A DNA stretch of 64,000 bases from an uncultured Planctomycetia bacterium (GCA_964421015.1 CAYQUS010000001.1:236726-300725), one strand, 5' to 3'; positions 6,052 to 63,716 are shown, numbered from the stretch's first letter. Numbers and translations are program-made. The notes: generated by a model not told the origin, from the letters alone.

Positions 6052-7725
6052 TCAAGCCGCCACCGGTTCCGGCATGTCGTCAAGCTTGAAATCCTTTCCT
6101 TCCCCGTGCCACCTCATCTCTCCTATCACTCCCTGCGCCACATTCGTAAGGTGATCCCCTATCTTTTCAAGATTATCGACGAGATCCATAAAAACAACAC
6201 CGGAGATCAGATTGCACTGAGCGGCATTGAGCCTTTCTACATGGGCTTTCTTAAGACTTATCTGGTATCCGTTTATCCTTTTTTCCCTCTCTATCACTTT
6301 CTTGGCTATCTGAGGATCGTTCTTGTTTAAACATTCCTCGGCTTCCGCCATCATACAGGAAAGGTCATTCCACATCAAACGAAGCTCCCTTATCGCGTCG
6401 TCGGTAAAGGGGAGTTTATTCTCCACTTTTCTTTCCACGAACTCCATTATGTTTTCGGCGTGATCACCTATTCTTTCTATGTCATTGACGCCGTGTATAA
6501 GTACGGGAAGCTGTTCCGATATCTCCTGGGAGAGATGCCGCTGAGAAAGAGATATAAGATACTGCGTAATGGCCGACTGCAGGTTATCTACCGCCTGTTC
6601 AAAAACACATACCCTCTTAGACGCCGCGGGATTGTCCTCAAAAAAAGCCCGCATGGCCGTTGAAACAGACTGTCCCGCGAGATTTAGCATCCTTACGGTT
6701 TCCTTGCGCGCCTGTTCCATGGCTATCGGCGGAGTATCCAACAGGTACTTATCAAGATATTTGGGCCCTACGTCTATGGCGCCTTTCTTTTTCGGAACAA
6801 GAAAAACTACCGCTTTCTCCAGATAACCCACTAAGGGCAGGAACAAAATAGCGTTGACCACTTTGAAAAGTGTATTGGCGACAGCTATGTAGAACATTAT
6901 GTTGGCGGTGGTTATCTCTCCCGGAAGTATCGTCTCGATAGCTTTTATAAAGAGGCCGTTATAGACGAATATCATCATATAACCTACCCCTATTACATTA
7001 AAAAGGGTATGCGCCATTGCCGCCCTTTTAGCGTCCAGGTTCGTCCCTATGGATGCCAGCTGGGCGGTTATGGTCGTCCCTATATCTCCACCAAGGGTAA
7101 GAGTTATGGCCGCGGGAAAACTTATGATACCGTTAAATGCCATCACCTGTACTATGGCTATGGTCGCGCTGGAACTCTGTATTATCATTGCGACCACCAT
7201 GCCGGCAAGCACACCCAGCACGGGATTATCTCCGAATGTCATAAAAATAGTTTTGACATGCTCGCTTTTTTTAAAAGGCTCAAAACCGTCTTTCATGAAA
7301 CCAAGCCCCATGAAAAGCATTCCGAACCCCATCAGGACCTGCCCGAAAAACCTGGTTTTTTTAGTTTTACCTACTACGCTTAAACCGAACCCTACCCCGA
7401 CAGCGGGTAGAGCGTAATGCGTGAGGTCTATCACGGATGTAAAAGAAACAAGCCATGCCGTGACGGTGGTCCCGATGTTTGCGCCTATTATGACGCTTAT
7501 GGCCTGTTTCAGAACAAGAATACCGGCGTTAACGAACCCTACCACCAGTACCGTGGTCGCGCTTGAGGATTGTATAAGAGACGTCACAAAAACGCCTACA
7601 AGAACACCCATTAAAGGCACTTTTGTGACCATATTGAGTATGGCCCTGAGTTTATCGCCCGCTATGTTTTTCAACCCCTCGGACATGCTCTGCATGCCGA
7701 AAAAGAAAAGGCCCAAACCTCCCAC
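6052..7725 (-). CDS. Na+/phosphate cotransporter (NptA/YjbB family) with C-terminal PhoU-like domains. The true start may be a non-canonical ATC at 7752.
   Basis: 557 aa. The N-terminus carries GGLGLFFFGM and QSSSATT repeats, and the C-terminal helical repeats are PhoU-like. The track start is a GTG about 31 nt downstream of an AAGGAGA SD. Confidence 0.85.
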   Translation of the reverse strand: MGGLGLFFFGMQSMSEGLKNIAGDKLRAILNMVTKVPLMGVLVGVFVTSLIQSSSATTVLVVGFVNAGILVLKQAISVIIGANIGTTVTAWLVSFTSVIDLTHYALPAVGVGFGLSVVGKTKKTRFFGQVLMGFGMLFMGLGFMKDGFEPFKKSEHVKTIFMTFGDNPVLGVLAGMVVAMIIQSSSATIAIVQVMAFNGIISFPAAITLTLGGDIGTTITAQLASIGTNLDAKRAAMAHTLFNVIGVGYMMIFVYNGLFIKAIETILPGEITTANIMFYIAVANTLFKVVNAILFLPLVGYLEKAVVFLVPKKKGAIDVGPKYLDKYLLDTPPIAMEQARKETVRMLNLAGQSVSTAMRAFFEDNPAASKRVCVFEQAVDNLQSAITQYLISLSQRHLSQEISEQLPVLIHGVNDIERIGDHAENIMEFVERKVENKLPFTDDAIRELRLMWNDLSCMMAEAEECLNKNDPQIAKKVIEREKRINGYQISLKKAHVERLNAAQCNLISGVVFMDLVDNLEKIGDHLTNVAQGVIGEMRWHGEGKDFKLDDMPEPVAA

Positions 7726-7848: not shown

Positions 7849-8664
7849 CTAGCTGCCTATCCTGATCCCTGAAAAATACCCCTCAAGAGCTGTCATAGCT
7901 GAAAGAGCGGCCAGGTAGCTGGTCTTTGGATTTGACGGGAAACTTACATTTTCCGTCCTGAAGGAGAAATCCCCTGCCTTGCTTCTGACTTTTATCTCGT
8001 GAATGTTCCGTTTGTAATCAGGTGAGGAAATTATCCTTACTATGGTGTTTTCGCTGCCGGAACCGGCAAGAGCAAGTAAAGCCGAAACGTTAATATTCTT
8101 GGGAAAAGCACTCACGGCCTCCCTGGCCGTACCCTCAAATACAAGGGTTTCGCTTTTTATTGACTTTGGGTCTATCCCCTTTTGCTCAAGGTACGGGGCA
8201 CCGGAAAGCGAATCGGGCGATTTGCGGGTAGTGAGAACCACCGAATCTATTCCGGCTATCCTGGCGGCTTTTACGGCGTCTATCCCGCCTATCGCCCCGG
8301 AGGGAAGCATTACCGTTATTCCCGCTTTTGAGGCCTCCTCAAGAAGATATTCTTTGCCGGTAAGGCCTCCTATACTGAGTATCATAACGTCCTTTCCCGA
8401 ACGGATGGCGATCTCAAGGACCTCCGCCGCTGCCGACTGCTGGGCCGCCTCTATTACCAGATCGGAACCGTTTACAGCTTCTTCGATGTTCACAGCCGAC
8501 TGCGCGGAACCAAGATCAGAGGACAACTTCAGGGATCTTTTCTGATCGGTATCGAAAAGCACGGTTGAACTGACCCATGAAGAAGCTCCGTCCCTGAGCC
8601 AATAAGCTATTGCGCTTCCTATAGCTCCGCAACCCACTATGGCAGTTTTTTTCTTTTTCCTCAC
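7849..8664 (-). CDS. nadX: L-aspartate dehydrogenase (NAD biosynthesis, Thermotoga TM1643 type)
   Basis: 271 aa. The N-terminus has a Rossmann fold (IVGCGAIGS). The central and C-terminal regions (LPSGAIGGIDAV...FEGTAREA...PKNINV...NPKTS) align with T. maritima NadX. It sits immediately upstream of nadA with a 4-nt overlap. Confidence 0.85.
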   Translation of the reverse strand: MRKKKKTAIVGCGAIGSAIAYWLRDGASSWVSSTVLFDTDQKRSLKLSSDLGSAQSAVNIEEAVNGSDLVIEAAQQSAAAEVLEIAIRSGKDVMILSIGGLTGKEYLLEEASKAGITVMLPSGAIGGIDAVKAARIAGIDSVVLTTRKSPDSLSGAPYLEQKGIDPKSIKSETLVFEGTAREAVSAFPKNINVSALLALAGSGSENTIVRIISSPDYKRNIHEIKVRSKAGDFSFRTENVSFPSNPKTSYLAALSAMTALEGYFSGIRIGS

Positions 8665-50508: not shown

Positions 50509-52086
50509 CTACTTTTCCCTACTCAATTCCCAGTATTTCGCCCACTTAAGGTAATGCACCCATGCGAACATTACCGAGAAGACCAGGCCTCTCATTCCCT
50601 CCATAAAACCCATTTTCTTGACATACATCTTCATGAAAAGTTTTCTGGGTTTCACCTTCAGGTTGTACAGTATGGTCTTATCGTCGGCCGGCCCGTCTTT
50701 TTTGAACATCTCTCCGGCCTGCAGTGTGGTGTAACGGTTCTGTCTTTCTATGAATTCCGACATGGAATCGAAAGGATAATGCTCTATTTCCTCCTCCAGC
50801 CTGCCCTGTTTCCCGTTCACGATAAGTTTTTCGTGTATGTCGCCTTCATACCTGGCCATGCCTTTTCTAAAAAGATGCGCGGAATAATGGAACCACCCGC
50901 CGAATCTCATCGCCTTTCCCAGAAATACGTTTCTCCTTCTGAATTTGAAACTCACGCAGCCCGAATCGTCCCCGGAGAGTATTTTTTCCATTCTGGCCCT
51001 GAACCCCCCTGTAACTACTTCATCGGCATCAAGCTGAAGTATCCAGTCACCGGTGGCGGCGTCTGCCCCTTTATTCCTTTCATTACCGAACCCCTCGAAA
51101 TCGCTCAATATTATCTTATCGGAATACTCCCCAGCTATTTCGAGAGTGCCGTCATCGGACCTTCCGTCCACTATTATTATCTCATCGGCCCATTTTACGG
51201 ACTCAAGACAGGGTCTTAGCTTTTTGGCGGCGTTTTTAGTTATGACAACCGCGGAAAGCTTTTTACTGCCGCTTGTCACGCCCCGTTCCGTCCGCTTTTT
51301 TCCCGAAACTGCCTGCGATTTCCTTGCCGGCACGCCTCCTCTCATTTCCCAGCACTTCACCCAGCTCACAAGCTGGTATATCCCGCTGAAAACAGCCACC
51401 GTAAGGCCGTACACTCCGTCTTTATAGGCTTTTTTGCGTAGAAGCCTGCGGTAAAAACACCTGTCCATGGCTCTCCAGAAAGCCCGGAAGAAACCCATCT
51501 TCCTATCGGTCAGGAACCACTTTCGGGCCTCAAGCGTCGTATGCCCGTTGAGGCTTCTCACATAATCTTCTATGTCCCTGTGCGAATAGTGGATCATATC
51601 GCCCTTAAGGTGGCCGCAATCACCCTCAAGGAAAGCCCTGGGATGCACATCGGCCTCTTCATATTTGAATTCGTCCCTGAGAAAAAGCCTTGTCTGAGCG
51701 GCCGGGTACTCTCCCCCGAACTTGAGCCAGTAAGACCCTATATGATTGCGTCTGGGTATCGTGTAAGCCTTAAATTCCGGCCCGCCCGCTATAAGGTCGC
51801 CTATTTCCGAGGCAAGCTCGCCGGTTATCCTTTCATCGGCATCCAGGCTAAGCACCCATCGGTTAGAAGCCCTTGAATACGCCCAGTTCCTGTGGCGGCC
51901 TTCATTGTCCATCTTACGGGAGAAAACCTTATCGGTAAACCTTGCCGCTATCTCCCTGGTGGAATCAGAACTGTCGTCATCCACCACTATTATCTCGTCG
52001 GCCCACTCTACCGTCTTTAGACAGTCCTCTATATTGTCTTCCTCGTTCTTCGTGATCACAACAACGCTTACCGGGACTTTTTTCAC
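50509..52086 (-). CDS. Two-domain glycosyltransferase, tandem GT2 modules, WaaE/KdtX-like
   Basis: 525 aa. The motif (V)ITKNEE...CL.(T/S)V.WADEII.VD..S.D.T appears twice, at residues about 8-50 and about 280-320. Confidence 0.8.
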   Translation of the reverse strand: MKKVPVSVVVITKNEEDNIEDCLKTVEWADEIIVVDDDSSDSTREIAARFTDKVFSRKMDNEGRHRNWAYSRASNRWVLSLDADERITGELASEIGDLIAGGPEFKAYTIPRRNHIGSYWLKFGGEYPAAQTRLFLRDEFKYEEADVHPRAFLEGDCGHLKGDMIHYSHRDIEDYVRSLNGHTTLEARKWFLTDRKMGFFRAFWRAMDRCFYRRLLRKKAYKDGVYGLTVAVFSGIYQLVSWVKCWEMRGGVPARKSQAVSGKKRTERGVTSGSKKLSAVVITKNAAKKLRPCLESVKWADEIIIVDGRSDDGTLEIAGEYSDKIILSDFEGFGNERNKGADAATGDWILQLDADEVVTGGFRARMEKILSGDDSGCVSFKFRRRNVFLGKAMRFGGWFHYSAHLFRKGMARYEGDIHEKLIVNGKQGRLEEEIEHYPFDSMSEFIERQNRYTTLQAGEMFKKDGPADDKTILYNLKVKPRKLFMKMYVKKMGFMEGMRGLVFSVMFAWVHYLKWAKYWELSREK

Positions 52087-52105
52087 AACCCTCCTCGATG
52101 TTCCT

Positions 52106-53179
52106 TTACTTGTTTTTTATCAGCTCAAGGCATGCTTCAGCTACCTTTTCCGGCCCTATATCCACCACGCACCTCTGTTCATAGGCGCATTCCGGAAGCT
52201 TGAAATTACCGTAACACGGCCGGCACGGAAGACCCGAAACCCTTATCACCCTGTGTCTCCCCTTTATCGGGAAAGGCCCGTACACAGTTTCGTCTACCGG
52301 CCCGAAAATAGAAACTGTCTTTGTGCCAAGCGCTACCGCTATATGAAGCGGCCCTCCGTCATTACAAAGAACTATACCGGCCCGGCTCATAATTCCCATA
52401 TATTCCCGGAGATCAAGACCGTTCTCAACGGCAGCCGGCGGAACGGACATTTCCGAAGCCACGTAATCGCAAAGTGCTTTTTCGGAAGGATCCCCCATAA
52501 TAACGGTCCGGATACCTCTTTCCTCGAGCGTTTCCGCTACCTTGGCAAAACCTTCCGCCCTCCATCTTTTCCTGGAAGCGTGGCGCCCCCAACTGGCCCC
52601 TCCCCCCGGTATTACGGCCGCGAATTTTTTATCCGCAAGCCCTTTTTTCCTGAGGTATTCGTCCGTCACAGACACCGTACCCTCGTCGGGAACTATCAGC
52701 ATTTCTTTTTCTTCCGCCTTTATACCCAGGCTCTCCATAACTTCAAGGTAATGTTCTATGACATGTTTGTCCCTGAACCCCGTAATTTTTACGCGGTGTG
52801 TGAGAAAGAGCCCTCTTCCCTTGTAATCCAGGCCGGCGCGGAGTTTTATCCCCGCCAAGGCGAAAAAAAGACCGAATTCCCTGGACATCGTAAAATCAAG
52901 CACAGCCTCGTACTTGGCTTTCTTAATTCCGTTAAAGAGCGAGTACAGCTCCCTGAACCATTCTATTTTGGACCTTTTCCAAAGAGAAACGTAATTATCC
53001 CTTTCGTAAACAAAAATATCATTCACACCTGGGATACATCGGACTATCTCGGATGCGCGCGCGTTGCAGAGATATCCCACGGATACTCCGGGAAACGCCC
53101 TTCTAAGATTAGCCGCGATAGGCGAGGTAAAAAGAACGTCGCCTATTCCGAAAATATTAGCGATAAGGATCTTTTTCAA
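52106..53179 (-). CDS. ADP-heptose:LPS heptosyltransferase (GT9)
   Basis: 357 aa. N-terminus KILIANIFGIGDVLFTSP and a GT9 C-terminal domain. Confidence 0.82.
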   Translation of the reverse strand: MKKILIANIFGIGDVLFTSPIAANLRRAFPGVSVGYLCNARASEIVRCIPGVNDIFVYERDNYVSLWKRSKIEWFRELYSLFNGIKKAKYEAVLDFTMSREFGLFFALAGIKLRAGLDYKGRGLFLTHRVKITGFRDKHVIEHYLEVMESLGIKAEEKEMLIVPDEGTVSVTDEYLRKKGLADKKFAAVIPGGGASWGRHASRKRWRAEGFAKVAETLEERGIRTVIMGDPSEKALCDYVASEMSVPPAAVENGLDLREYMGIMSRAGIVLCNDGGPLHIAVALGTKTVSIFGPVDETVYGPFPIKGRHRVIRVSGLPCRPCYGNFKLPECAYEQRCVVDIGPEKVAEACLELIKNK

Positions 53180-54395
53180 GCTGCTCTCCTCTGCCGGGGC
53201 CCGCGCTTGACGATAAAGTAACGCCTATTATGATATTAAAGAACACAGCAAGCGTAAGAGAAAAAAGATGCGTGTCTACCGCGCTATTCAGCAAAAAACC
53301 CACCGTTCCGCCGAACATACCCACTGAGAAATTTTTTTGATATCCCCCTGGCATTGACAATATGCCCTTAAGAGAACAGCCAAGAGCGGCTACCATAAAA
53401 CATATCATGAGCAGCGCCCCCGGGATACCTATTTCAGAAGCTGTCTGGAGGTAACAGTTATGCGCGTACCTGTCATCGATGTATCCCTGCGGCTTATAAT
53501 CCGGGAAATGCTTACTGAAGGTATTTACACCGAACCCCAGTACCGGATGTTCTTTTATCATATCGACGCTCCCCCTCCAGAGCATCACTCTTTCCCACGA
53601 AGTCCCGCTCTTAAGATCAGCCGTTTCGTATATCCTCTGTCGGGAAGAGGACGGCATTAAGATAAAAACCAAAACAAGTATCCCCATAAAAAGCGCAGCC
53701 GTTTTTTTGCCTTTCAAGATCCCGACAACCACGAATGCCGCGGCAAAAGACATCCATGCTCCGCGTGACCCGGTAAGAAAAAGACAAACCAAAGCTAAAG
53801 CCAGAACCGTAAAAAACAGCATTGTTCTTTTTATCCCGTTCTTCGGCGATAAAAGCATGGGAACAAACAAAGATCCTACCACTATCAGATAAGCCCCGAA
53901 ATCATTCGGGTGGATAAACGACGACGATATTCTCCTTAGATATTCGTCAGGGATAAGTGTCCTGTGCCGCAGAAGATCCTCGCCGGTTATGTATTGGAAT
54001 ATCCCGTTAACCGTGACAAGAAAGGTCGCGCCGGCAGCGGCATAGAGAAACTTCCTGGATTTTCCCTCCGGCCAAACCTGAGTGGAGACCGCCATAAAAA
54101 CAAGAGCGTATTGAAGAGCCTTGAAAATTCCCCTGAAACTTTCTTTCGGGTACTGAGAGTTAAAACACGAAAGAATAACCCATAAAAAATAAGCCCCAAG
54201 GAATATCGCCGGTAAAGACCGGAGTTTTCTGTAGTCGCCTTTAATTATCGTCCCCAGAACCCAGGCCGTTATAAGAATTGTGGAAACTATCTCGACCATA
54301 GAGTTCGAGAAGGTGATCACGAATATAAGAACGTAAACGCACCACTCGACCGCCTTATCCAGAAACCCCGTAATTTGCTCTCTCGTAACCCTCAT
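53157..54395 (-). CDS. O-antigen ligase/polymerase-like (Wzy_C) membrane protein, paralog of the gene at 62466-63716
   Basis: 412 aa polytopic protein. The periplasmic-loop motif HPVLGFGVNTF...YAHNCYLQTASEIGIPG is shared with the second copy. Confidence 0.75.
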   Translation of the reverse strand: MRVTREQITGFLDKAVEWCVYVLIFVITFSNSMVEIVSTILITAWVLGTIIKGDYRKLRSLPAIFLGAYFLWVILSCFNSQYPKESFRGIFKALQYALVFMAVSTQVWPEGKSRKFLYAAAGATFLVTVNGIFQYITGEDLLRHRTLIPDEYLRRISSSFIHPNDFGAYLIVVGSLFVPMLLSPKNGIKRTMLFFTVLALALVCLFLTGSRGAWMSFAAAFVVVGILKGKKTAALFMGILVLVFILMPSSSRQRIYETADLKSGTSWERVMLWRGSVDMIKEHPVLGFGVNTFSKHFPDYKPQGYIDDRYAHNCYLQTASEIGIPGALLMICFMVAALGCSLKGILSMPGGYQKNFSVGMFGGTVGFLLNSAVDTHLFSLTLAVFFNIIIGVTLSSSAGPGRGEQLEKDPYR

Positions 54396-54414
54396 GCTAC
54401 TCCTCTTCCGCTCT

Positions 54415-54492
54415 CAACCTGAACCTAAACCTCAACCTCAACCTTAACCTCTCCTTCCCCCTTCCTCCTTACTCCTTACTACTTTCTACTTA
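54415..54492. repeat. Tandem hexamer repeat (N)AACCT x6 on the plus strand, i.e. GAGGTT/AAGGTT on the minus strand. It is followed by a CT-rich tract and lies in the 5' leader of the ligase-like gene.
   Basis: Read directly: caacct gaacct aaacct caacct caacct taacct ctccttcccccttcctccttactcc. Confidence 0.8.
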
Positions 54493-54512
54493 GCTAATCC
54501 CTCCCCCCGCGC

Positions 54513-55898
54513 CTAATACGCGTTTTTCATAGCGAACACCGACATGAAAAGTATCTTTATGTCGAACATGATAGACCAGTTTTCAACGTAATAAAGGTCG
54601 TATTTTGTCCGCTCTTCTATCGAGGTGTTGCCTCTAAGGCCGTTAACCTGGGCCCAACCAGTCATTCCTGACTTGATCTTATGCCGGGCCATATACCTGG
54701 GTATGTCCTTTTTGAACTTACCCACAAAATGGGGCCTTTCAGGCCTTGGCCCCACAAGGCTCATCTCACCCTTCAGCACGTTTATAAGCTGTGGAAGCTC
54801 ATCTATATTGGTCCGCCTGAGAAAACTTCCTACCCGTGTCCTCCTGGGGTCATTCTCTTTTGCCCAAACCGGTCCCGTACCCTTTTCGGCATTCTCTATC
54901 ATGGTGCGGAACTTTATTATGGCGAACCTCCGGCCGTCTTCTCCCACCCTCTTCTGAAGATAAAACACCCTTCCGGGAGAACTTAACTTTATAAGGGCCG
55001 AAACTACAATGAATACCGGAGAGAGCGCCGCTATGGCTAAAAGGGAGATCAGAATATCCATTGCCCTTTTTATCACTCTGTTTATCCACTCAGCCAGCGG
55101 AGATTCCTTAAGGCCCAGGAGCGGGACTCCGTCTATTGTCCTCATATCCACCTGTGAGGTCACCATACCCAGAAGATCAGCAACTATCCTTACTTCAACA
55201 AGGTTTTTCTCGCACTCCAGTATTATCTCCATTATCTCAGACCTGGGAATATCGGCCTCAGTGACTATAACCTCGTCCACGTCATATTTTTGAAGAGCCG
55301 GAGCCAGATTTTCCATGCCCCCCTCCACAACTACATTGGCTACCTTTGAAGTGTCTTTAGACTTAACCCTAAGAACCGCCTTTATGTCATAGTCCCAGTG
55401 AGGATCCTCGGAAATATGATCTATAAGCCGGGGGACCATTTCGCCGTCACCTATAATGAGAAGGTTCCTGGACTTCTCCCTGAGCGCGAACCTTATCCGG
55501 TTGACCACAAAACGCCAGAGAGACAAAAAGAGGATGAGAACCCCCCACGCCAGGATAAGCATCCCTCTTGAAAACGAAAATTCCCTGTAAAGAAAGGTAC
55601 CCGCCATGAAGACCAGTATCCCTACAGAAACGCTCCTTACTATGGAGAAGAACTCATCGACGATAGAAAGCCTTGCCCTTACGGAATAAAGCTTGTCGGA
55701 CCTGATAAGAAAGACCATTATGAGGGTTAGGACAGGAAGAGTTCGGAAATAATGGCTCACGCTCGGTATACCGTAAGCGACGGGGAAAAACCCTGAACTG
55801 AACCTGAACCAGTATGAAAAAAGAAGCCCCGCGTTGACAGCAAGTATATCGCCCAAGACCAGGATAAGTATTACCCTGAAATCGTTCCTTATTCTCAT
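54513..55898 (-). CDS. Polyprenyl-phosphate sugar phosphotransferase (bacterial sugar transferase, WbaP/EpsL-like). This is the initiating enzyme.
   Basis: 461 aa. N-terminal TM segments and the C-terminal motif LVGPRPERPHFV...SGMTGWAQVNG. Confidence 0.85.
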   Translation of the reverse strand: MRIRNDFRVILILVLGDILAVNAGLLFSYWFRFSSGFFPVAYGIPSVSHYFRTLPVLTLIMVFLIRSDKLYSVRARLSIVDEFFSIVRSVSVGILVFMAGTFLYREFSFSRGMLILAWGVLILFLSLWRFVVNRIRFALREKSRNLLIIGDGEMVPRLIDHISEDPHWDYDIKAVLRVKSKDTSKVANVVVEGGMENLAPALQKYDVDEVIVTEADIPRSEIMEIILECEKNLVEVRIVADLLGMVTSQVDMRTIDGVPLLGLKESPLAEWINRVIKRAMDILISLLAIAALSPVFIVVSALIKLSSPGRVFYLQKRVGEDGRRFAIIKFRTMIENAEKGTGPVWAKENDPRRTRVGSFLRRTNIDELPQLINVLKGEMSLVGPRPERPHFVGKFKKDIPRYMARHKIKSGMTGWAQVNGLRGNTSIEERTKYDLYYVENWSIMFDIKILFMSVFAMKNAY

Positions 55899-55984
55899 TT
55901 TACCTAATCCAGTGCCGATTGAGTTACGAAACCCCTGTCTTTTACTGAAGATATATTCGATAACACATTACTGAATACCCCTGA

Positions 55985-56006
55985 AAAACCTCAAAGCCCG
56001 AAGAGG
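55985..56006 (-). terminator. Candidate intrinsic terminator (CCTC-ttcgggcttt-GAGG followed by T5) immediately after the GT4 stop codon
   Basis: Read directly. The stem is short, 4-5 bp. Confidence 0.3.
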
Positions 56007-57134
56007 CTATGAATGCCCCGAGATCCTGGCCTCAATGTACCGCCTGACTTCGTCCTTGAACCTGTCACGGTTGAACCTCAGGGCGCTGCGCCTGATCACT
56101 TCCGGGTCGAACCTGTTCTCATTTTTTTCGTAAGTATCAATAGCGGTGTTTATGGCCTCCGGTGTCTTTTCATAAAAAAACACGCCTGTGGCCTCCTCTT
56201 CTTGACTCCCGCCACCAAAAGGCACTATAGTCTCAAGCGCCCCTCCCCTGGCATAGGCTATAACAGGCTTACCGTGAAGCTGGGCCTCTACCGGGACTAT
56301 TCCAAAATCCTCTTCCCCGGGAAAGATGAGAGCCCTGCACCCCTGGTAACACGAAACAATCTCGGCGTCACAGGACCATCCCCTGAACTCAATGTTACTT
56401 CCTGCCTTATGCCTGAGAGACTCGAGTTCTCCGCCGGAACCTACCACCACCAGTTTCCTTCCGGATACAGTGAAGGCCTCTACCGCCAGGTCAACCCTCT
56501 TGTATGGGACCAGAGCCGAAACTACGAGGTAGTACCCCTCATGTTCCTTCGCAAGATCTCCTCTTCCATGAAGCGCAACGTCAACAGGGGGGTATATTAT
56601 ATCCGAATCCCTGCCGTAGTACTCTTTTATGCGGCTTCTGACATTATCCGATATAGCTATGAAATAATCAACGCTTTTGTTGGAAGCGAGGTCCCATTTT
56701 CTTAACCTGTTCATTATAAAGGAGATAAACTTTTTTTTAAGTATATTCTCTCCCGAAAAATACTCATCATAAAATTTCCATGCATATCTGACGGGAGTGT
56801 AGCAGTAGCATATGTGCGTGGATCCGGGCCTTACCTTTACCCCTTTAGCTACACAGTGGCTTGAACTTAAAACCAGGTCGTAAGAGGAAACATCGAAACT
56901 TTCTATTGCCGCCGGGAAAAAAGGAAGGAAATTGCGGTAATTTTTAGATATTCCGGGAAATTTCTGAAGAAAAGAAGTACGTATATCCATCTTTTCTATT
57001 AACTGCGATACGCTTCCTTTATCGTGAAGCAGTGTGAAAAGCGTAGCATCGGGAAAAAGTTCGCAAAAAACCTCGAGACACTTCTCCCCTCCGCGCATCC
57101 CCGTGAGCCAGTCATGTATTATGGCGGTTTTCAT
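56007..57134 (-). CDS. Glycosyltransferase family 4. The start is taken at the ATG giving MKTAIIHDWL; the track GTG is at 57152.
   Basis: GT4 N-terminus HDWLTGMRGGEK and a C-terminal EX7E region. Confidence 0.78.
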   Translation of the reverse strand: MKTAIIHDWLTGMRGGEKCLEVFCELFPDATLFTLLHDKGSVSQLIEKMDIRTSFLQKFPGISKNYRNFLPFFPAAIESFDVSSYDLVLSSSHCVAKGVKVRPGSTHICYCYTPVRYAWKFYDEYFSGENILKKKFISFIMNRLRKWDLASNKSVDYFIAISDNVRSRIKEYYGRDSDIIYPPVDVALHGRGDLAKEHEGYYLVVSALVPYKRVDLAVEAFTVSGRKLVVVGSGGELESLRHKAGSNIEFRGWSCDAEIVSCYQGCRALIFPGEEDFGIVPVEAQLHGKPVIAYARGGALETIVPFGGGSQEEEATGVFFYEKTPEAINTAIDTYEKNENRFDPEVIRRSALRFNRDRFKDEVRRYIEARISGHS

Positions 57135-57174
57135 GATACGACATACTATCACAACGCGAGGATGATACGCAAGA

Positions 57175-57675
57175 CTATGATTCCTTTATCGCATAACGCC
57201 CCGCCGCCATAAGGTATCCCTTGGCCCGCTCCGCGAGCTTGTACCTGTTAACGATATCACAAAAAGCCTTACCGTGATTCGGCTCGACCAAGTGAGCCAT
57301 CTCATGGACGATCACATAGTCCCTTACCCATAGCGGCATTTCTTTTAGCCTTGAGGATATCTTTATCTTTCCCGTACGGCTGTCGCATGACCCGTAACGC
57401 TTATTTTGCCTCGATGAATATTCGATGGAAGAGACATTTAGTTTATTTCCGAAATATTTTTTATTTATCCGTGCCGCTACATCCCGTAGCGATCTCCCCT
57501 TCCTGAGATCATCTTTGGCCCGCCTCCGCTCAAACTTGTCCTTAAAACTCTCTATTATTCTGTCCAGATACTGTTTGTTTATTGCGGCCGGAGCGGCCAC
57601 CAAAAGCACACCTCCTTCCGTCCTGGCCGATACCGTTCTTTTCCTTTTCGAACTGTACGATATTTTTACTTCCAC
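57175..57675 (-). CDS. DUF45/YgjP-like zinc metallo-hydrolase (HExxH). The proposed GTG start at 57675 lies just after the upstream stop codon. The track TTG at 57795 would create a 105-nt same-strand overlap.
   Basis: WVRDYVIVHEMAHLVEPNHGKAF (HEMAH zinc motif). The N-terminus (M)EVKISYSSKRKRTVSARTEGGVLLVAAP is typical of DUF45. Confidence 0.65.
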   Translation of the reverse strand: MEVKISYSSKRKRTVSARTEGGVLLVAAPAAINKQYLDRIIESFKDKFERRRAKDDLRKGRSLRDVAARINKKYFGNKLNVSSIEYSSRQNKRYGSCDSRTGKIKISSRLKEMPLWVRDYVIVHEMAHLVEPNHGKAFCDIVNRYKLAERAKGYLMAAGRYAIKES

Positions 57676-57689
57676 ATCCGCCTTCCCAC

Positions 57690-58373
57690 TTAAAAAGAAA
57701 ATTTTAGTTTTGTCCCGAGAATATTGTAATCGGTCCAGATATCTTTCCCTTTGCTTGTTTGAAGGATATAGTGCACATCCAGCGTAAGACCCCAAAAAAG
57801 GGCAAACTCAAGTCCCGAGTAAAGCCTGTTACGATTAAACTCAAAGTGCCTTGAAAGATCAAAATAAAGCTCGTCGCCTGCATAAGGGGCGAACTGTAAC
57901 TTACCAATATTCATGGGGATCTTGGCCTTAAAGAAGTTTCGGTACCGCCAGTTATCCTTTTTATCCTCTATGTCCCTATATTCCAGCCTGCTGCGGTCGC
58001 TCAATTTAAAACCGAATAAGTCAAACTTAAGCGTACCGTCAAGTTTACCCACGTTTTCATACATCCAGCTTTTCTTACCTTTGTTGAATATCTGCCTGTA
58101 CCCGGCCTTTATCTCAAACCATTTTGCTATTCCCAAATAGGAAACGCTGAGGTCATAATGCTGATAATAAAGCTGACTTGCGCCTCCTCCCCATCTCAGT
58201 TCGTCCTCGAGTGATAGTTTCCAGTCCTTTGCGGCCTTCCACTCTATCTCGTTCACGTTCCAATACTGAAAATCCCCGTCTTCATAGGCCATCGCCGGAT
58301 GATCCCAAACACACCATACAATTACGGCTAAAATTATCCCGATTATTGATTTTATCGGTATTGAATTTTTCAT
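57690..58373 (-). CDS. DUF2490-like outer-membrane beta-barrel protein
   Basis: 227 aa with a signal peptide and alternating amphipathic beta strands rich in Y/W/F. It ends in ...KLKFSF, the aromatic C-terminal OMP signature. Confidence 0.6.
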   Translation of the reverse strand: MKNSIPIKSIIGIILAVIVWCVWDHPAMAYEDGDFQYWNVNEIEWKAAKDWKLSLEDELRWGGGASQLYYQHYDLSVSYLGIAKWFEIKAGYRQIFNKGKKSWMYENVGKLDGTLKFDLFGFKLSDRSRLEYRDIEDKKDNWRYRNFFKAKIPMNIGKLQFAPYAGDELYFDLSRHFEFNRNRLYSGLEFALFWGLTLDVHYILQTSKGKDIWTDYNILGTKLKFSF

Positions 58374-58398
58374 TTCTTCTCCCTTGTTTTATGCGTCA

Positions 58399-59160
58399 CT
58401 AACTGATAGCTCCGCTTATGTATTCTTTGGTCATTTTTTCCTTTGGCGAATTAAATATAATGTCTGCAGGGCCGTGCTCAATAAGTTCTCCGAGATATAA
58501 AAACACCACATAATCCGCCAATCTTTTTGCCTGCCTCAAAATGTGCGTAACTATGATAGTTGTGTACCTCTTCTTAAGCTCAATAAAACGTTCCTCTATC
58601 CGCCTGCTGGAACTCGGGTCGAGGGCCGAAGTCGGTTCATCACCAAGAATGATCTCGGGTTCCACCGCCAGCCCTCTCGCCAAACACAACCTCTGCTGCT
58701 GACCGACAGATAATTTCGACGCCGGAGAGTTCAACCTGCCGCTGACCTCATCCCAAAGGCTTGCCTCCTTGAGATAATGCTCTACTTTAGCGTCTAATAA
58801 GTTTTTATCCTTAACGCCGTGTATGCGCATGCCATATGCCACATTGTCGTATATGGACATCGGAAGAGGATAAGGTTTCTGAGAAAGCAGGCCCATTTTT
58901 CTGCGTATATGGGTTACCTCGGCCTTAGGATCGAATATATTCTCACCATCTACCAAAACCTCACCCGTCACCTTTACTCCTTCGGTAGAATCTATCAGGC
59001 GGTTAAAGGATTTAAGAAGAGTGGTCTTTCCGCATCCCGATGGACCGATAATAACAGTTATCTTTTTGTCTGGGATATCTATGGATATATCCTTAAGGAT
59101 CCGGTGCTCGCCGTAACATACGTTCAATCCCCTTACGCTTATATGAGACCTGAATTCCAT
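58399..59160 (-). CDS. pstB: Phosphate ABC transporter ATP-binding protein
   Basis: 253 aa. GPSGCGKTTLLKSFNRL and PstB-specific C-terminal motifs. Confidence 0.9.
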   Translation of the reverse strand: MEFRSHISVRGLNVCYGEHRILKDISIDIPDKKITVIIGPSGCGKTTLLKSFNRLIDSTEGVKVTGEVLVDGENIFDPKAEVTHIRRKMGLLSQKPYPLPMSIYDNVAYGMRIHGVKDKNLLDAKVEHYLKEASLWDEVSGRLNSPASKLSVGQQQRLCLARGLAVEPEIILGDEPTSALDPSSSRRIEERFIELKKRYTTIIVTHILRQAKRLADYVVFLYLGELIEHGPADIIFNSPKEKMTKEYISGAIS

Positions 59161-59169
59161 GTTCTTCTC

Positions 59170-60021
59170 CTATTTTGTAACATTCCTCGACAAAAACCTT
59201 CCCAAAGATCTCACCGTAACGCTTATAAGAAGGATCATCACGGTAAGTATAAGTGCTGAGGCATAGGCCCTGTCCTGAACCTCGGGAAATGGCGTTCCCA
59301 GCTGAAAGAATATGGCAAGTGGCAAGGTGGCCGCGGGGCTCAAAAGCGACGAAGGAATGTTATCCGTAAAACCGGCGGTAAATATGACCGAAGCCGCGTC
59401 ACCTATCCCCCTCCCCAGAGATATCATCACCGCGGTCAAGATGCCGGGAATCACCTGTCGTACCATTACGTACACGGCCGCCTCGAATCTCGTAGAACCC
59501 AAAGAATATGAAGCCTCTAGAAGATCTTTCGGCACCATACGCATTACTTCGTCCATCGCCCTGCACATGATAGGAAGCACCAGAAAAGCGACTGTTATTA
59601 TCCCTCCCAAAAGCGAGGCTCTAAGGCCCAGGATAAGCATGATGGAAAACCCGAACGCTCCGTACACTATCGACGGAACCCCCCAAAGAACATCAAAAGA
59701 AAAACGTGTAAAAAACGCCCGCTTCGACCCTTTTTTTGCATAAATGTTTACGTACAGAACCACCGGAAGCGCCACGCATAATGAAAGAAGTATAGCTCCT
59801 GCCGAGATATATAAGGACCCGAGGATAGCGTTAAGCACGCCTCCTTCTTTTCCAAGATAAAACCCCCCTTTTGGTATTCGGGTTATCATGTCAAGATCCA
59901 GCGCCGGCAGCCCTTTAACAACTATGGCCGCCAATATAAGAAACAGCACAAAAACTACCATGAAAGTAGCGGACCGCATGACAAAAATAAATATGTTTTC
60001 CTCTATTTTCCTTCTGTCCAC
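59170..60021 (-). CDS. pstA: Phosphate ABC transporter permease
   Basis: 283 aa, 6-TM BPD-transporter type. Assignment rests on its position after pstC. Confidence 0.85.
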   Translation of the reverse strand: MDRRKIEENIFIFVMRSATFMVVFVLFLILAAIVVKGLPALDLDMITRIPKGGFYLGKEGGVLNAILGSLYISAGAILLSLCVALPVVLYVNIYAKKGSKRAFFTRFSFDVLWGVPSIVYGAFGFSIMLILGLRASLLGGIITVAFLVLPIMCRAMDEVMRMVPKDLLEASYSLGSTRFEAAVYVMVRQVIPGILTAVMISLGRGIGDAASVIFTAGFTDNIPSSLLSPAATLPLAIFFQLGTPFPEVQDRAYASALILTVMILLISVTVRSLGRFLSRNVTK

Positions 60022-60025
60022 AAAA

Positions 60026-60916
60026 CTACATACTCCTTTCCACCTTCAAGAGGATAAATCTTGAAATTACATTAAAGAATATGACCACAACAAGAAGTAT
60101 CAGTGCGGCGAAAAGCAAAGCCGAATCATAAAGCGGCACAGAAAGCATCTCCCCGTAGTTATTGGCTATGAGGGCCGGAAGCGGATATGCCGGATCAAAA
60201 AGAGATCCCGGCACTCTGGCAAGATTACCGGCAACCATAAGCACAGCCATAGTCTCACCGAAAGCCCTCGATAAGCCCAGTACCACAGCGGCAATTATTC
60301 CTGGCATGGACTTGCGGACCAGAACATATTTAACGGTCTGCCATTTGGTCGCCCCCAGAGAAAGCGACGCTTCCCTAAGCTCAACGGAAACTGATGAAAA
60401 AACCTCAAGAGAAACATGGATTATTACCGGAAGCACCATCACCGAAAGGACTATTCCTCCGGCCAATACGCTGAAGCCCGTCGAAACGCCGCCAAAAGCC
60501 GGAGCGGCATATCTTCTTATTAAAGGCACTATAACAAGCATTCCCCAAACACCGTATATTACGGAAGGAATACCGGCCAAAAGATCCAGAATGGACCGCA
60601 TGAATTCCCTCGGTCTGGATGACATATATTCCGAAAGATAAACCGAAACTAGAAGTGAGAGAGGCAGGGCTATGGCCATGGCAACCATAGTTACCCAGGC
60701 AGTTCCCATAATAAACGGGTAAAAACCGAACTCTCCCCTTGAAGGCCTCCACACACTTGAAAATAAAAGTTCGCTTAAGGGGCGCGTCATAAGAATAGGC
60801 CTTGCCCTATAGTAAAGCCCGGCTATCATCAAAAAAACTATAAGGCCCGAGAATATAACAAAAGTGAACATTACTTTTGAAGCGGCTTTATCTATCTGTA
60901 TCCTTCTATAAGACAT
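60026..60916 (-). CDS. pstC: Phosphate ABC transporter permease
   Basis: 296 aa permease. Assignment rests on its position after pstS. Confidence 0.85.
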   Translation of the reverse strand: MSYRRIQIDKAASKVMFTFVIFSGLIVFLMIAGLYYRARPILMTRPLSELLFSSVWRPSRGEFGFYPFIMGTAWVTMVAMAIALPLSLLVSVYLSEYMSSRPREFMRSILDLLAGIPSVIYGVWGMLVIVPLIRRYAAPAFGGVSTGFSVLAGGIVLSVMVLPVIIHVSLEVFSSVSVELREASLSLGATKWQTVKYVLVRKSMPGIIAAVVLGLSRAFGETMAVLMVAGNLARVPGSLFDPAYPLPALIANNYGEMLSVPLYDSALLFAALILLVVVIFFNVISRFILLKVERSM

Positions 60917-60951
60917 CTCGTTACCTTTTCAGTGTCCAAACCATAAAAAAA

Positions 60952-61908
60952 CTATTCCGCTTTTAGTTTTTCCAGTCCTTCGATAACCGATCTTTGCGAA
61001 AGCCCCACATACCCTGCCTCGGCAGTGAATTTCTGCCCATCGGTCAGGACCCATCTGATAAATTCAGCGACTAAGACCCTATCCGGCCTTCCCTTGCACA
61101 CAAAATACAGGTCTCTTGCGGGAGGAGAAGGATATTTTCCTTCGGCTATAGCCGAGACCATACTTGCCCTGTTGCCGTAAAAATCCTCTTCAGGATCTAT
61201 CTTACCGCTTCCGTTACTATCCAAAGGAACTATCCTGATACCGCTAAGCTGCTCCCCTGTCCCTGTGTCATAAGCGTAATTGATGTTGTTGAACCCGATA
61301 CCGTTAACATCGTTAATTACCGCTGAAGCAAGACCCGGATCCCCGTACACTCCGACACCCGCCAGATCCTCCTGCTTTGATCCAAGGAAACTTGCCCATG
61401 TCTCGGCCGCTCCGCATGAATCAGACCGTGTATACACATTGATCTCACCCTTAGCCATAGGCCCGGCCACATCGCTCCATTCGGTTATTTCCTCAGTTAT
61501 CCATATACCGGAGGCCTGCTCTTTGGTGATACCACGCGCTAAAAGTTCCGGGCAGGCCGGGTTCATGCTGTTAATAGTGGGAACCACAGCGTCTTTTACT
61601 ACCGCTACCCACCAAACACCTTTTTCTATCTCCTCGGGATATATTTCCCTGGAAACTTTACCTATATCTACCACCCCTGAAATGGCGTCAGCCATTCCTT
61701 TTCCCGCTCCGCCTGCCGAAATGTCTACACGAACCTCGGGATGCAGCTTTTGGAATTCTTCCGCCCATTTAACGGCCATAGGGTAAAGCGCCCATGCGCC
61801 TGACATAGTTATTGTGCCTTTAAGTTTCTGGCCGTCGTCACAGTAGACACGACCCCCAGAATTAAAGACCAAAGCTATAGCCATTAGTCCCGCCAAAAAC
61901 TTTTTCAT
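60952..61908 (-). CDS. pstS: Phosphate-binding protein. The start is at the ATG preceded by a GGAGGAAG SD; the track ORF to 62031 would overlap the Rrf2 gene.
   Basis: Signal peptide MKKFLAGLMAIALVFNSG, then the PBP fold with TITMSGAWALYP...SAGGAGKG. Confidence 0.88.
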   Translation of the reverse strand: MKKFLAGLMAIALVFNSGGRVYCDDGQKLKGTITMSGAWALYPMAVKWAEEFQKLHPEVRVDISAGGAGKGMADAISGVVDIGKVSREIYPEEIEKGVWWVAVVKDAVVPTINSMNPACPELLARGITKEQASGIWITEEITEWSDVAGPMAKGEINVYTRSDSCGAAETWASFLGSKQEDLAGVGVYGDPGLASAVINDVNGIGFNNINYAYDTGTGEQLSGIRIVPLDSNGSGKIDPEEDFYGNRASMVSAIAEGKYPSPPARDLYFVCKGRPDRVLVAEFIRWVLTDGQKFTAEAGYVGLSQRSVIEGLEKLKAE

Positions 61909-61984
61909 TGTCTTCCTCCGCTTCAAGTACATGTCTATCAACACCTCTTTACTGCCCGCTATATCCATCATACCTATACCGGAG

Positions 61985-62386
61985 TCATACAACATCCGAG
62001 AGTTTTGTTTCTTCCATGCGTTTAGCGACATAATCCCTTATGTCACGAAGTACGCATAGCACTTTCTTTTCTTTTTCAAGAGGCGTATGTGAAAAAAAAT
62101 ATTTACTCACTGATTCTACGGGTGCCAGGGCACCGTCCATCAGTCGGATTATCTCGGCCAGTGTGATAGCCTCCGGGGCCTTAGCCAGCATATACCCGCC
62201 TGTAGCCCCTCTTTTAGTTTTTATGTATCCGGTATTTTTTAAGATCATAAAGATCTGTTCGAGATATTTTTTTGAAAGGTCGTATTCCGAACAAATATCC
62301 TCTACTTTTACATACCCCTCTCCGGCGCGCCTGGCCATGTAGACAAGGGCCAGGATCGAATATTCACTTTTAGTCGTAAGTTTCAT
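61985..62386 (-). CDS. Rrf2-family (IscR/NsrR/CymR-like) transcriptional regulator
   Basis: 133 aa. The N-terminal wHTH reads KSEYSILALVYMARR...GATGGYMLAKAP. A GGAGG SD lies upstream. Confidence 0.82.
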   Translation of the reverse strand: MKLTTKSEYSILALVYMARRAGEGYVKVEDICSEYDLSKKYLEQIFMILKNTGYIKTKRGATGGYMLAKAPEAITLAEIIRLMDGALAPVESVSKYFFSHTPLEKEKKVLCVLRDIRDYVAKRMEETKLSDVV

Positions 62387-62404
62387 AAACCTCCATTAAT
62401 TATA

Positions 62405-62444
62405 TTGTCTATGGAAATTATAGACAAATATAAAAAAATTTCAA
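62405..62444 (-). promoter_or_regulatory. Promoter TTGAAA, 16 nt, TATAAT for the Rrf2-pst operon, with a perfect palindrome TTGTCTAT-N7-ATAGACAA (62405-62427) overlapping the -10. This is the likely Rrf2 operator.
   Basis: Read directly. Confidence 0.5.
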
Positions 62445-62465: not shown

Positions 62466-63716
62466 CTACTTTTCTACTGACGGTGAAACAGACATGCCTG
62501 CCGATATCCCGCAGGATGTCCAGAAAAGCATAGATATGGGCGTGCTGTAGAAATGGGTGTCGAAAAGGAACGTTACAAGAAGCGCCGCGGTACCGGAATA
62601 AAAACCAGCCATTAGGACATCTTCGCCTCTGCTCTCCCCCTGCAAGATGAACGCCCCTCGAAAAAACAGGACAATGAACACAAGAAAGGCCATCAGTCCC
62701 GCTAAACCAAGTTCGGAACACATCTGAAGGTAACAGTTATGCGGGTAGGAATATCCCTCCTTATGGGGATGTTTTTCCCTATTGACGGTATCATAAGTGT
62801 TAAGACCACTCCCAAAAAGAGGACGATCCCTGATCATTTCTAAAGCTTCCCCGGCGTACCGCAGTCTTCCTTTGAGACTATCATCGATAACAGTTCCCGG
62901 GTAAGAACTCCTTACAAATGTGGAAGTGATCGGCATTAGAAGAATAAAAACAGCTATCGGGGCTAAAAGCAGCATTACACGTTTCTTTTTAAGCAGAGAC
63001 GCCATAAATACACAGGCAGCGAAAAGCGCCAGCCATGACGCCCTCGAATAAGTCATGACAAGCGCTCCGGCTGCAAGAACCGTTCCCGCCACGGCGAGAG
63101 CCCTGACCCAAAGTCTACGTTCCGAAAAAATAACAGCCGCCCCTACAGGTATCACGAACGCCAGATAAGCACCAAGATCGTTAGGAAATTTCATGCTTGA
63201 TGTGATCCTGATCGTCTCGAGCGCTCCCTGCCCCCTGAAAAAAACATCCGGAGCAAAACCCCTTATGAGATCCCTCCCGTTAAAATACTGATAAAATCCG
63301 TTCACGGATATGAAAGCAGACATAATAAGCGCTGCCACCGCCATGGGTCGCGATCGGGTGCGGTCGAGGGAAACATAATTACGAACGGCAAAGTATATAA
63401 GCGCGCCTTCGAGCGTTTTGCCGAAAAACCCCCTTAAACTTTTCATGGGAACCGGAGAATAAAAGATAGAAAAGAACGCCAGAAGGATATACACGAGTAA
63501 AGCCATGTCACCTGTACTTGTGCGTAGATATCTCGGACGGTCAGAGGCAATAAGAAGAAAGTACAATACAAGGCTCACGGAAACCGATATTTCGACAAAA
63601 GAGACGGAAAAAGTCACGGCTGAAAGGACGGATATAAACGCCGCTAACAGTAAACGTTCCAGCGTATTTGACGTTATCTTGCTCAAAAACATATCCCTCC
63701 CCAGGTTCCCGGACAT
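62466..63716 (-). CDS. O-antigen ligase/polymerase-like (Wzy_C) membrane protein, second paralog
   Basis: 416 aa polytopic protein. It shares RPLFGSGLNTY...YPHNCYLQMCSELGLAG with the 53157-54395 protein. Confidence 0.75.
   Translation of the reverse strand: MSGNLGRDMFLSKITSNTLERLLLAAFISVLSAVTFSVSFVEISVSVSLVLYFLLIASDRPRYLRTSTGDMALLVYILLAFFSIFYSPVPMKSLRGFFGKTLEGALIYFAVRNYVSLDRTRSRPMAVAALIMSAFISVNGFYQYFNGRDLIRGFAPDVFFRGQGALETIRITSSMKFPNDLGAYLAFVIPVGAAVIFSERRLWVRALAVAGTVLAAGALVMTYSRASWLALFAACVFMASLLKKKRVMLLLAPIAVFILLMPITSTFVRSSYPGTVIDDSLKGRLRYAGEALEMIRDRPLFGSGLNTYDTVNREKHPHKEGYSYPHNCYLQMCSELGLAGLMAFLVFIVLFFRGAFILQGESRGEDVLMAGFYSGTAALLVTFLFDTHFYSTPISMLFWTSCGISAGMSVSPSVEK

Follow-up and report, generated by a model that had tools for sequence, protein, structure and literature searches.

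A cluster-less Rrf2 regulator linked to a Pst-type importer that may carry sulfur oxyanions in uncultivated bacteria

The 64,000-nucleotide stretch GCA_964421015.1 CAYQUS010000001.1:236726-300725 from an uncultured Planctomycetia bacterium, here called the window (64 kb), contains an operon in which the gene of an Rrf2-family regulator is followed by a transporter annotated as the phosphate importer PstSCAB and by a DUF2490 gene, all on the minus strand. In a first-pass annotation, it was proposed that phosphate uptake is wired in this operon to an Rrf2 regulator of the kind that senses redox state, iron-sulfur (Fe-S) clusters or nitric oxide (NO). The results described below support control by the Rrf2 regulator; sensing by means of a cluster does not hold, and phosphate is most probably not the cargo. 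The favoured explanation, which is held with a little more than even confidence on the basis of sequence comparisons, is that a CymR/IscR-like repressor without a cluster would control a Pst-derived importer of the sulfate type. With similar confidence, the cargo would be sulfate or thiosulfate rather than phosphate.

The rrf2 promoter TTGAAA-16-TATAAT is found at 62444..62417, and the predicted operator is a perfect 8-bp inverted repeat, TTGTCTAT-N7-ATAGACAA, overlapping the -10 element, as had been reported in the first-pass annotation (Table 1). This sequence has a single match in the 64 kb even when three mismatches are allowed, with 0.16 expected by chance, and when a position matrix is used at 10 bits or more, 62405-62427 is again the sole match in the window. 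The window was also searched for additional copies of the operator, such as one before a Na/Pi-PhoU gene, and none appeared at this matrix threshold or with up to three mismatches. In a set of 80 genome loci anchored on the regulator (0.93 Mb), the palindrome is present with zero to two mismatches in about 50 loci and ends approximately 20 nt before the rrf2 ATG. An alignment of 51 loci on the palindrome shows that cTTGAC is kept exactly 17 nt upstream of TATAAT and that TATAAT is part of the left half-site; this arrangement, TTGTCTATAAT..ATAGACAA with the embedded -10, is kept in Omnitrophota, Planctomycetota, Spirochaetota, Patescibacteria and other phyla. Over the 0.93 Mb, the operator matrix gives 84 matches at rrf2 promoters and six elsewhere, compared with about one in shuffled sequences. 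The six other matches are all upstream of same-strand genes, and all but one are intergenic. A palindrome that overlaps the core promoter of its own regulator gene and is kept among the orthologues has the features of an autoregulated Rrf2 operator, and a repressor site over the -10 and start site is the standard autorepression geometry. It is therefore considered highly probable that the palindrome, conserved in about 50 genomes and found before pstS when rrf2 is last or absent, acts as the Rrf2 operator and controls the operon. In many of the 51 aligned promoters, a third half-site, (A/G)TAGACAA, is present directly 3' of the palindrome, which suggests an extended or second binding register; the window version, TATAATTAA, is weak.

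The operon is conserved across several uncultivated phyla. The order rrf2 and then pstSCAB is found in 16 of the 80 regulator-anchored loci, in three phyla, and among 80 metagenome loci selected through the binding protein (out of more than 600 matching stretches), 32 have an Rrf2 gene close by, so that the adjacency noted earlier is a recurrent one. These nearby Rrf2 proteins are either members of the window subfamily with the operator or 30-41% identical Rrf2 proteins with three Cys residues. The gaps between rrf2 and pstS are usually short, with a median of about 20 nt and three of 64-410 nt. Where rrf2 is not the first gene, the position of the operator follows the start of the operon. In L031, the order is operator, pstSCAB and rrf2, with no site before rrf2, and in L046 the operator heads a longer series, namely Aminotran_5, ABC, CobW, FeS, rrf2 and pstSCAB. 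The operator is located directly before pstS or before DUF2490-pstS, with no rrf2 nearby, in the clear cases L130 and L167, and operator-like sites with weaker scores precede the transporter in L131 and L163. These data support the view that Rrf2 and the transporter form one regulated unit.

Two loci depart from this arrangement. In L113 (about 625-790), an rrf2 remnant, in which the N- and C-terminal parts have been joined in frame by an internal deletion, lies between an intact operator and pstS. In one lineage (L166, about 8030-8320), a 69-aa gene, ribbon-helix-helix-like by eye, heads DUF2490-pstSCAB in place of Rrf2 and has its own long palindrome, TATATTACACTCTAATATAAC..GTTATATTAGA.

The regulator is a member of the Rrf2 family, matching PF02082 and TIGR00738 over its full length and having an N-terminal winged helix. 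Its subfamily is tight: the proteins are 133 aa long and share 62-80% identity across Omnitrophota, Planctomycetota, Spirochaetota, Patescibacteria, WOR-3 and others. Among the named models, CymR (NCBIfam NF047409) scores best, with 93.5 bits against a cut-off of 195; the models for IscR, NsrR and RirA give 48-70 bits, where 182-275 would be required. Of the solved structures, T. potens IscR (4CIC, 84 bits) and both CymR proteins are the closest. At the loop where IscR and NsrR bear three Cys ligands, the window Rrf2 has APVESVSKYFFSHTP. In the subfamily this segment is MDGALAPxESVSKYFFSHTPLEKEKK, and across the 114 homologues the 16 residues that follow MDGxLAP contain no Cys, in agreement with the earlier suspicion of a non-Fe-S Rrf2. 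Because the Fe-S Cys ligands are absent from the regulator, cluster-based redox or NO sensing by the window Rrf2 is excluded, as judged from the protein sequence. Cys32 is present in 100 of 107 homologues, most of which have no other Cys. The signal might come from a partner protein, as in the CymR-CysK pair, from a ligand bound in the conserved loop MDGALAPxESVSKYFFSHTP, or from a modified Cys32; a cysK gene was found neither in the window nor in the loci. Rrf2 proteins from Pst contexts and from TauE contexts interleave in the tree and therefore represent one orthologous regulator that heads the different operons of a regulon; the idea that they are separate paralogues was rejected for this reason. 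In L108, L122, L123, L128, L132 and other loci, the distant three-Cys Rrf2 (30-41% identical, with a CVS..C..C loop) flanks the same transporter subfamily, often with Porin_O_P in between, and the promoters of this Rrf2 have palindromes of the TAGTCGAT type, which are related to the TTGTCTAT half-site.

All databases name the binding protein PstS, and its nearest solved relatives are S-type phosphate-binding proteins, namely C. perfringens PBP-1 (4GD5, 4Q8R) and Sll0540. Its scores are below the cut-offs of the PstS models, with 113.8 versus 206.6 for TIGR02136 and 57.3 versus 205 for TIGR00975. In S-type proteins, the phosphate ligands in SphX numbering are S15, S16, T17, T45, S63, S146, G147 and T148, where T17 and T148 correspond to S13 and T131 of the C. 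perfringens protein; in SphX, T17A abolishes and T148A strongly weakens phosphate binding (PMC13614923). The residues were mapped by HMMER alignment, and the numbering reproduces S13 and T131. Most of the hydroxyl ligands are replaced in the window protein, in a pattern that is common to its 120 best homologues. In the motif SG-A-W-A, S15, S16 and T17 have become Ala, Trp and Ala, respectively; in GGAGKG, T45 has become Ala and an invariant Lys has been gained; and in D(A/S)-C-G-A, S146 has become Cys and T148 Ala. The only hydroxyl ligand kept is S63, in VSR. At SphX position 17, Ala is found in 120 of the 120 homologues and at position 148 in at least 117. The position of the D-type Asp is occupied by Ser, as in S-type proteins. 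According to this alignment, neither the D-type Asp nor the S-type Thr/Ser would remain as proton acceptor for HPO4; the site gains a Lys and a Trp, and an invariant Cys is present. According to the classical rule of the Quiocho laboratory, protonated phosphate is kept out of a site that offers only donors, and such a site suits sulfate; Salmonella Sbp binds sulfate via backbone NH groups, one Ser and one Trp NH.

In relatives, genes for sulfate assimilation are found beside the transporter. pstSCAB is followed by CysH, CysD and CysN in L137, by CysH and CysD in L114, by CysH in L096, and by DUF2490, a helix-turn-helix (HTH) gene and PAPS_reduct in L119. Upstream of pstS, CysD and a CysN-like gene are present in L107, and a CysN-type GTPase from the cluster of the L107 protein is present in L102 and L129. 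The gaps in these seven loci are 1-84 nt. In L164, a PAPS_reduct (CysH-type) gene is followed by Sat, 557 nt upstream of pstS. For the proteins scanned, the scores of the cys genes are above the curated cut-offs. Such sulfate-assimilation clusters occur in the relatives and not in the window, where relatives of CysD, CysN, TauE, SLC13, NMT1, CobW and porins were sought and DUF2490 alone was found. A census of 214 transporter neighbours yielded Rrf2 (24), Porin_O_P (16), PAPS_reduct (9), CysN-type GTPase (4) and ATP-sulfurylase (1). The families that recur among these neighbours do not include PhoU, Response_reg or HisKA, nor do molybdopterin, tungsten or arsenic genes recur. Three further annotated loci also have the transporter without phoU.

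The other partners of the regulator have a similar character. TauE/TSUP permeases, sometimes together with DUF2490, occur with it in 34 of the 80 loci, SsuA-like NMT1 ABC systems in three and SLC13/Na_sulph_symp carriers in two; such a carrier also lies directly before pstS in L099. In L012, rrf2 is preceded by CysD and CysN, and an APS-kinase fragment is present in L001. In L046, the gene under the operator encodes an aminotransferase of class V, the class to which cysteine desulfurases typically belong. Other operon-like neighbours of rrf2, such as radical SAM proteins and methyltransferases, were only heterogeneous in the census.

Two further gene groups were observed with the same regulator. 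In L003, L010, L046 and L078, a trio consisting of an ABC-type ATPase, a CobW-like GTPase and a PF04060 'putative Fe-S cluster' protein may represent an Fe-S-related module; in L046, the desulfurase-like gene precedes the trio. In L023, L047, L071, L073 and L084, rrf2 is followed by three tandem paralogous open reading frames (ORFs) of about 90 aa without a Pfam match, which are putative genes, and then, by eye, by genes resembling those for ADP-forming acetyl-CoA synthetase, acetyl-CoA hydrolase/GNAT and deacetylase.

In the proposed mechanism, a dimer of the cluster-less Rrf2 would bind the 23-bp palindrome over the -10 and start site of its own sigma-70-type promoter and would repress one transcript, comprising rrf2, the Pst-family importer and the DUF2490 channel, as long as sulfur is sufficient. 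A shortage of sulfur or cysteine would lift the repression. The importer would carry a fully ionised sulfur oxyanion (sulfate or thiosulfate) and, in relatives, would feed CysDN or Sat and CysH. The regulator would thereby belong to a sulfur and Fe-S supply regulon and would be functionally like CymR or IscR.

Several observations weigh against this explanation. A minority of the loci have cys genes at their flanks, namely about 8 of 73 for the transporter and 4 of 80 for the regulator, and the window contains none. The commonest outer-membrane partner in relatives is the Pfam phosphate-selective porin O/P, with the 16 hits given above. In Bacteroides, DUF2490 neighbours DUF4956, a family that accompanies polyphosphate-polymerase-like genes. 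Measured against the NCBI cut-offs for phosphate equivalogs, PstC scores above and PstA and PstB just below, and both PstC (SRAFGE) and PstA (GRGIGD) keep their membrane Arg/acidic pairs; in E. coli, the phosphate-holding pairs in TM5 are R237/E241 of PstC and R220/E224 of PstA (PMC12976172). In addition, the residue mapping is a sequence alignment and not a structure of the window protein, and the change from Ser/Thr to Ala/Gly makes for a larger pocket, into which molybdate, tungstate or selenate would fit as well.

The membrane and ATPase subunits, together with the PstS name and the frequent Porin_O_P neighbour, argue for an alternative in which the operon encodes a genuine high-affinity phosphate importer that is wired to Rrf2 instead of, or besides, PhoBR. 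The other visible phosphate route in the window, the Na/Pi-PhoU fusion, makes an unusual Pho architecture plausible. However, this alternative is unlikely, since the binding protein falls short of the PstS-family cut-off (113.8 versus 206.6), has neither the Asp mechanism of the D-type nor the Thr/Ser acceptors of the S-type, and has lost most hydroxyl ligands across 120 homologues. CysH, CysD, CysN and Sat recur among the neighbours but PhoU and PhoBR do not, and the regulator is otherwise associated with sulfur-type transporters. As had been stated earlier, no phoU follows pstB in the window operon. The claim that there is no Pho box also stands for the E. coli type: none was found near the operon, and the matches in the window are at chance level and lie elsewhere, with the limit that Pho boxes of these phyla may differ. 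Both absences are better explained by a system outside the Pho regulon than by rewired phosphate uptake.

Another possibility, which is compatible with a sulfate-type importer under Rrf2 control, concerns the signal. This could be redox or thiol stress acting via Cys32 (persulfidation or oxidation), rather than a partner or ligand. The wide conservation of Cys32, usually as the sole Cys, fits this idea, and S. aureus CymR senses oxidation through a single Cys, which is at another position in the alignment. However, Cys32 is missing in 7 of 107 homologues, and the best-conserved segment is the Cys-free loop, which suggests that a ligand or partner binds there; sensing via Cys32 is thus regarded as quite unlikely.

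The importer could also carry another non-protonated or larger oxyanion, such as molybdate, tungstate, selenate, arsenate or phosphite. A site with smaller side chains and without proton acceptors fits any tetrahedral anion that is larger or fully ionised, and the invariant Cys of the anion site may be named in its favour. In addition, the tungstate-binding TupA belongs to Pfam PBP_like_2, as does the window protein, and CysDN can also activate selenate. These cargoes are nevertheless judged decidedly improbable, as molybdopterin, tungsten and arsenic genes do not recur among the neighbours, the recurrent enzymes are those of sulfate activation and reduction, and the regulator's other partners are TauE, SLC13 and SsuA-like transporters.

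Finally, an incidental adjacency, with pstS read from its own promoter and Rrf2 controlling only itself or unlinked genes, can be set aside as very unlikely because the adjacency recurs, including Rrf2 genes beside the transporter in the 32 independent metagenome loci, and the operator moves with the operon start to lie directly before pstS where rrf2 is last or absent. A weak promoter might in principle fit into the 76-nt spacer, and the gene 3' of rrf2 differs between genomes, but the gaps are usually short, and neither a terminator-like site nor a promoter-like site at or above the scan threshold was found on the minus strand of the spacer, where a separate pstS promoter was looked for.

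A sulfate-type importer under a cluster-less repressor can be compared with several known systems. CymR of B. subtilis and S. aureus, the cluster-less master repressor of cysteine and sulfur acquisition, shares with the window regulator the Rrf2 fold without Fe-S ligands and a similar size, is its best named NCBIfam model and is among its best Protein Data Bank (PDB) matches; the predicted regulon of the window-type regulator, which would consist of sulfur transporters, also includes an SsuA-like ABC system. However, the window Rrf2 is not an orthologue of CymR (93.5 versus 195 bits), its operator is a 23-bp perfect palindrome, TTGTCTAT-N7-ATAGACAA, whereas the CymR box is 27 bp, and the window type occurs in Omnitrophota, Planctomycetota, Spirochaetota and Patescibacteria. 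IscR of T. potens (4CIC), a regulator of Fe-S biogenesis, is the best match among solved structures (84 bits) and has a similar geometry of promoter autoregulation. Further points of likeness to IscR are the cysteine-desulfurase-like gene headed by the operator in L046 and the three-Cys Rrf2 relatives with TAGTCGAT-type palindromes that flank the same transporter. In contrast to IscR, the window Rrf2 lacks the three cluster ligands (its loop is ESVSKYFFSH), and no isc or suf scaffold genes are present in the window operon.

PstSCAB-PhoU systems (PhoT), including SphX and C. perfringens PBP-1, have the same architecture as the window importer, with four homologous subunits, a PstC above the equivalog cut-off and the membrane Arg/acidic pairs. 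The window system differs in its anion site, which is without Asp or Thr/Ser acceptors and most hydroxyl donors and has gained Lys and Trp, in the lack of phoU and of an E. coli-type Pho box, and in its linkage to Rrf2 and, in relatives, to cys genes. With the SulT importers CysPTWA/Sbp and with Bacillus CysP, it shares the proposed function and, in relatives, the position beside cysH, cysD and cysN. Sbp binds the fully ionised anion by donors only and a Trp NH, and Bacillus CysP is a homologue of PiT-family phosphate carriers that carries sulfate. There is no family-level homology to SulT: models for CysT, CysW and the sulfate ATPase give 32-120 bits against cut-offs of 240-415 (CysT and CysW, 32-49 bits against 246-415), and the window importer is proposed to work like these systems, not to be a member of the family. 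The literature was searched, with incomplete coverage, for Rrf2 in connection with pstS, cysD or sulfate assimilation, for DUF2490 and for pstS in connection with cysDN, and no account of this regulator or of a Pst-type sulfate importer was found.

In total, the minus strand carries a head-to-tail series of seven ORFs at 57175-62386, from rrf2 to a DUF45/YgjP-like gene, and their assignments were confirmed with Pfam and NCBIfam (Table 1). The regulator of 133 aa is located upstream of pstS on the same strand, as had been stated; the spacer, given as 77 nt in the first-pass annotation, is 76 nt. This length follows from the pstS start at ATG 61908, which has a GGAGGA ribosome-binding site (RBS) before it and at which the signal peptide opens; a 359-aa pstS ORF from 62031 was rejected as an over-extension into rrf2. 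No terminator-like sites were found on the minus strand inside the operon.

Table 1. Features of the rrf2-pstSCAB operon and its promoter region in the window.
Feature	Position	Strand	Remarks
-35 element TTGAAA	62439..62444	-	16 nt from the -10
Operator, perfect 8-bp inverted repeat	62405..62427	.	23 bp; TTGTCTAT-N7-ATAGACAA
-10 element TATAAT	62417..62422	-	Inside the left operator half-site; consensus TTGTCTATAAT kept across 51 loci
Second TATAAT	62399..62404	-	With TTGTCT at 62422-62427 (17-nt spacer), an overlapping promoter-like site, 10/12 matches
rrf2 RBS GGAGG	62390-62394	-	
rrf2	61985-62386	-	133 aa; PF02082 102.9 bits (cut-off 30), TIGR00738 110.7 (cut-off 73.3)
pstS-like binding protein	60952-61908	-	PBP_like_2; PstS in databases; divergent anion site SGAWA, GGAGKG, VSRE, DSCGA
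pstC-type permease (BPD_transp_1)	60026-60916	-	TIGR02138 257 vs cut-off 196; SRAFGE Arg/Glu pair kept
pstA-type permease (BPD_transp_1)	59170-60021	-	TIGR00974 190.9 vs 193.45, just below; GRGIGD Arg/Asp kept
pstB-type ABC ATPase	58399-59160	-	TIGR00972 335.6 vs 343.2, just below cut-off
DUF2490 putative outer-membrane porin (TC 1.B.81)	57690-58373	-	PF10677 91.1 bits vs 29.8; N-terminal signal-like segment
DUF45/YgjP-like HExxH ORF	57175-57795	-	PF01863 76.8 bits; uncertain TTG start

The operon had been described as continuing into the DUF2490 and DUF45 genes, and only the first of these is retained. DUF2490 is a conserved partner that is found beside pstSCAB or TauE in L013, L020, L042, L064, L067, L070, L089, L095, L116, L119, L166, L167 and others. 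It is classed as a putative porin (TC 1.B.81), a family to which no pore function has been firmly assigned (PMC4827864). If the TTG is its start, the DUF45 ORF shares 106 nt with the 3' end of DUF2490. It adjoins the operon in none of about 160 related loci; for this reason it was rejected as an operon member and probably lies outside the conserved unit.

The operon is located within a surface-polysaccharide cluster (50509-57152 and 62466-63716) with two Wzy_C O-antigen ligase-like genes, glycosyltransferases of families 1, 2 and 9 and a Bac_transf sugar transferase. No GC anomaly was detected across the junctions between the operon and this cluster, and the base composition gives no sign of recent transfer. 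Elsewhere in the window, at 6052-7725 on the minus strand, a Na_Pi_cotrans protein is fused to two PhoU domains, as had been reported; no other clear gene for phosphate uptake was seen in the window.

The window transporter belongs to a subfamily whose binding proteins bear the signature SG-AWA, GGAGKG and (A/S)CGA. This subfamily is abundant in Omnitrophota, Planctomycetota, Spirochaetota and other lineages of anoxic sediments; more than 600 metagenome stretches match it, and a protein search gave at least 8000 candidates. There is about an even chance that this large Pst (PhoT) subfamily, annotated as phosphate transporters, imports sulfate or thiosulfate under Rrf2 control and so ties sulfur uptake to cysteine and Fe-S status. 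Two forms of Rrf2 would then be involved, a cluster-less form with the TTGTCTAT-N7-ATAGACAA operator and a three-Cys form with TAGTCGAT-type sites. The regulator itself represents a new Rrf2 subfamily with a clear predicted operator, and together with its three-Cys relatives it offers an evolutionary series from three-Cys to cluster-less regulators attached to the same transporter. If the proposed cargo is correct, this would be the second phosphate-carrier family recruited for sulfate, the first being the PiT family with Bacillus CysP, and the binding proteins would provide a natural test of the hydrogen-bond-acceptor rule that separates phosphate from sulfate. In that case, many "pstS" annotations in metagenomes would also be wrong. 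Studies of metagenomes and metatranscriptomes commonly take pstS as a sign of phosphate scavenging; inferences of phosphorus stress would then be inflated for many uncultivated anaerobic lineages, and a route of sulfate assimilation in these bacteria would have been overlooked.

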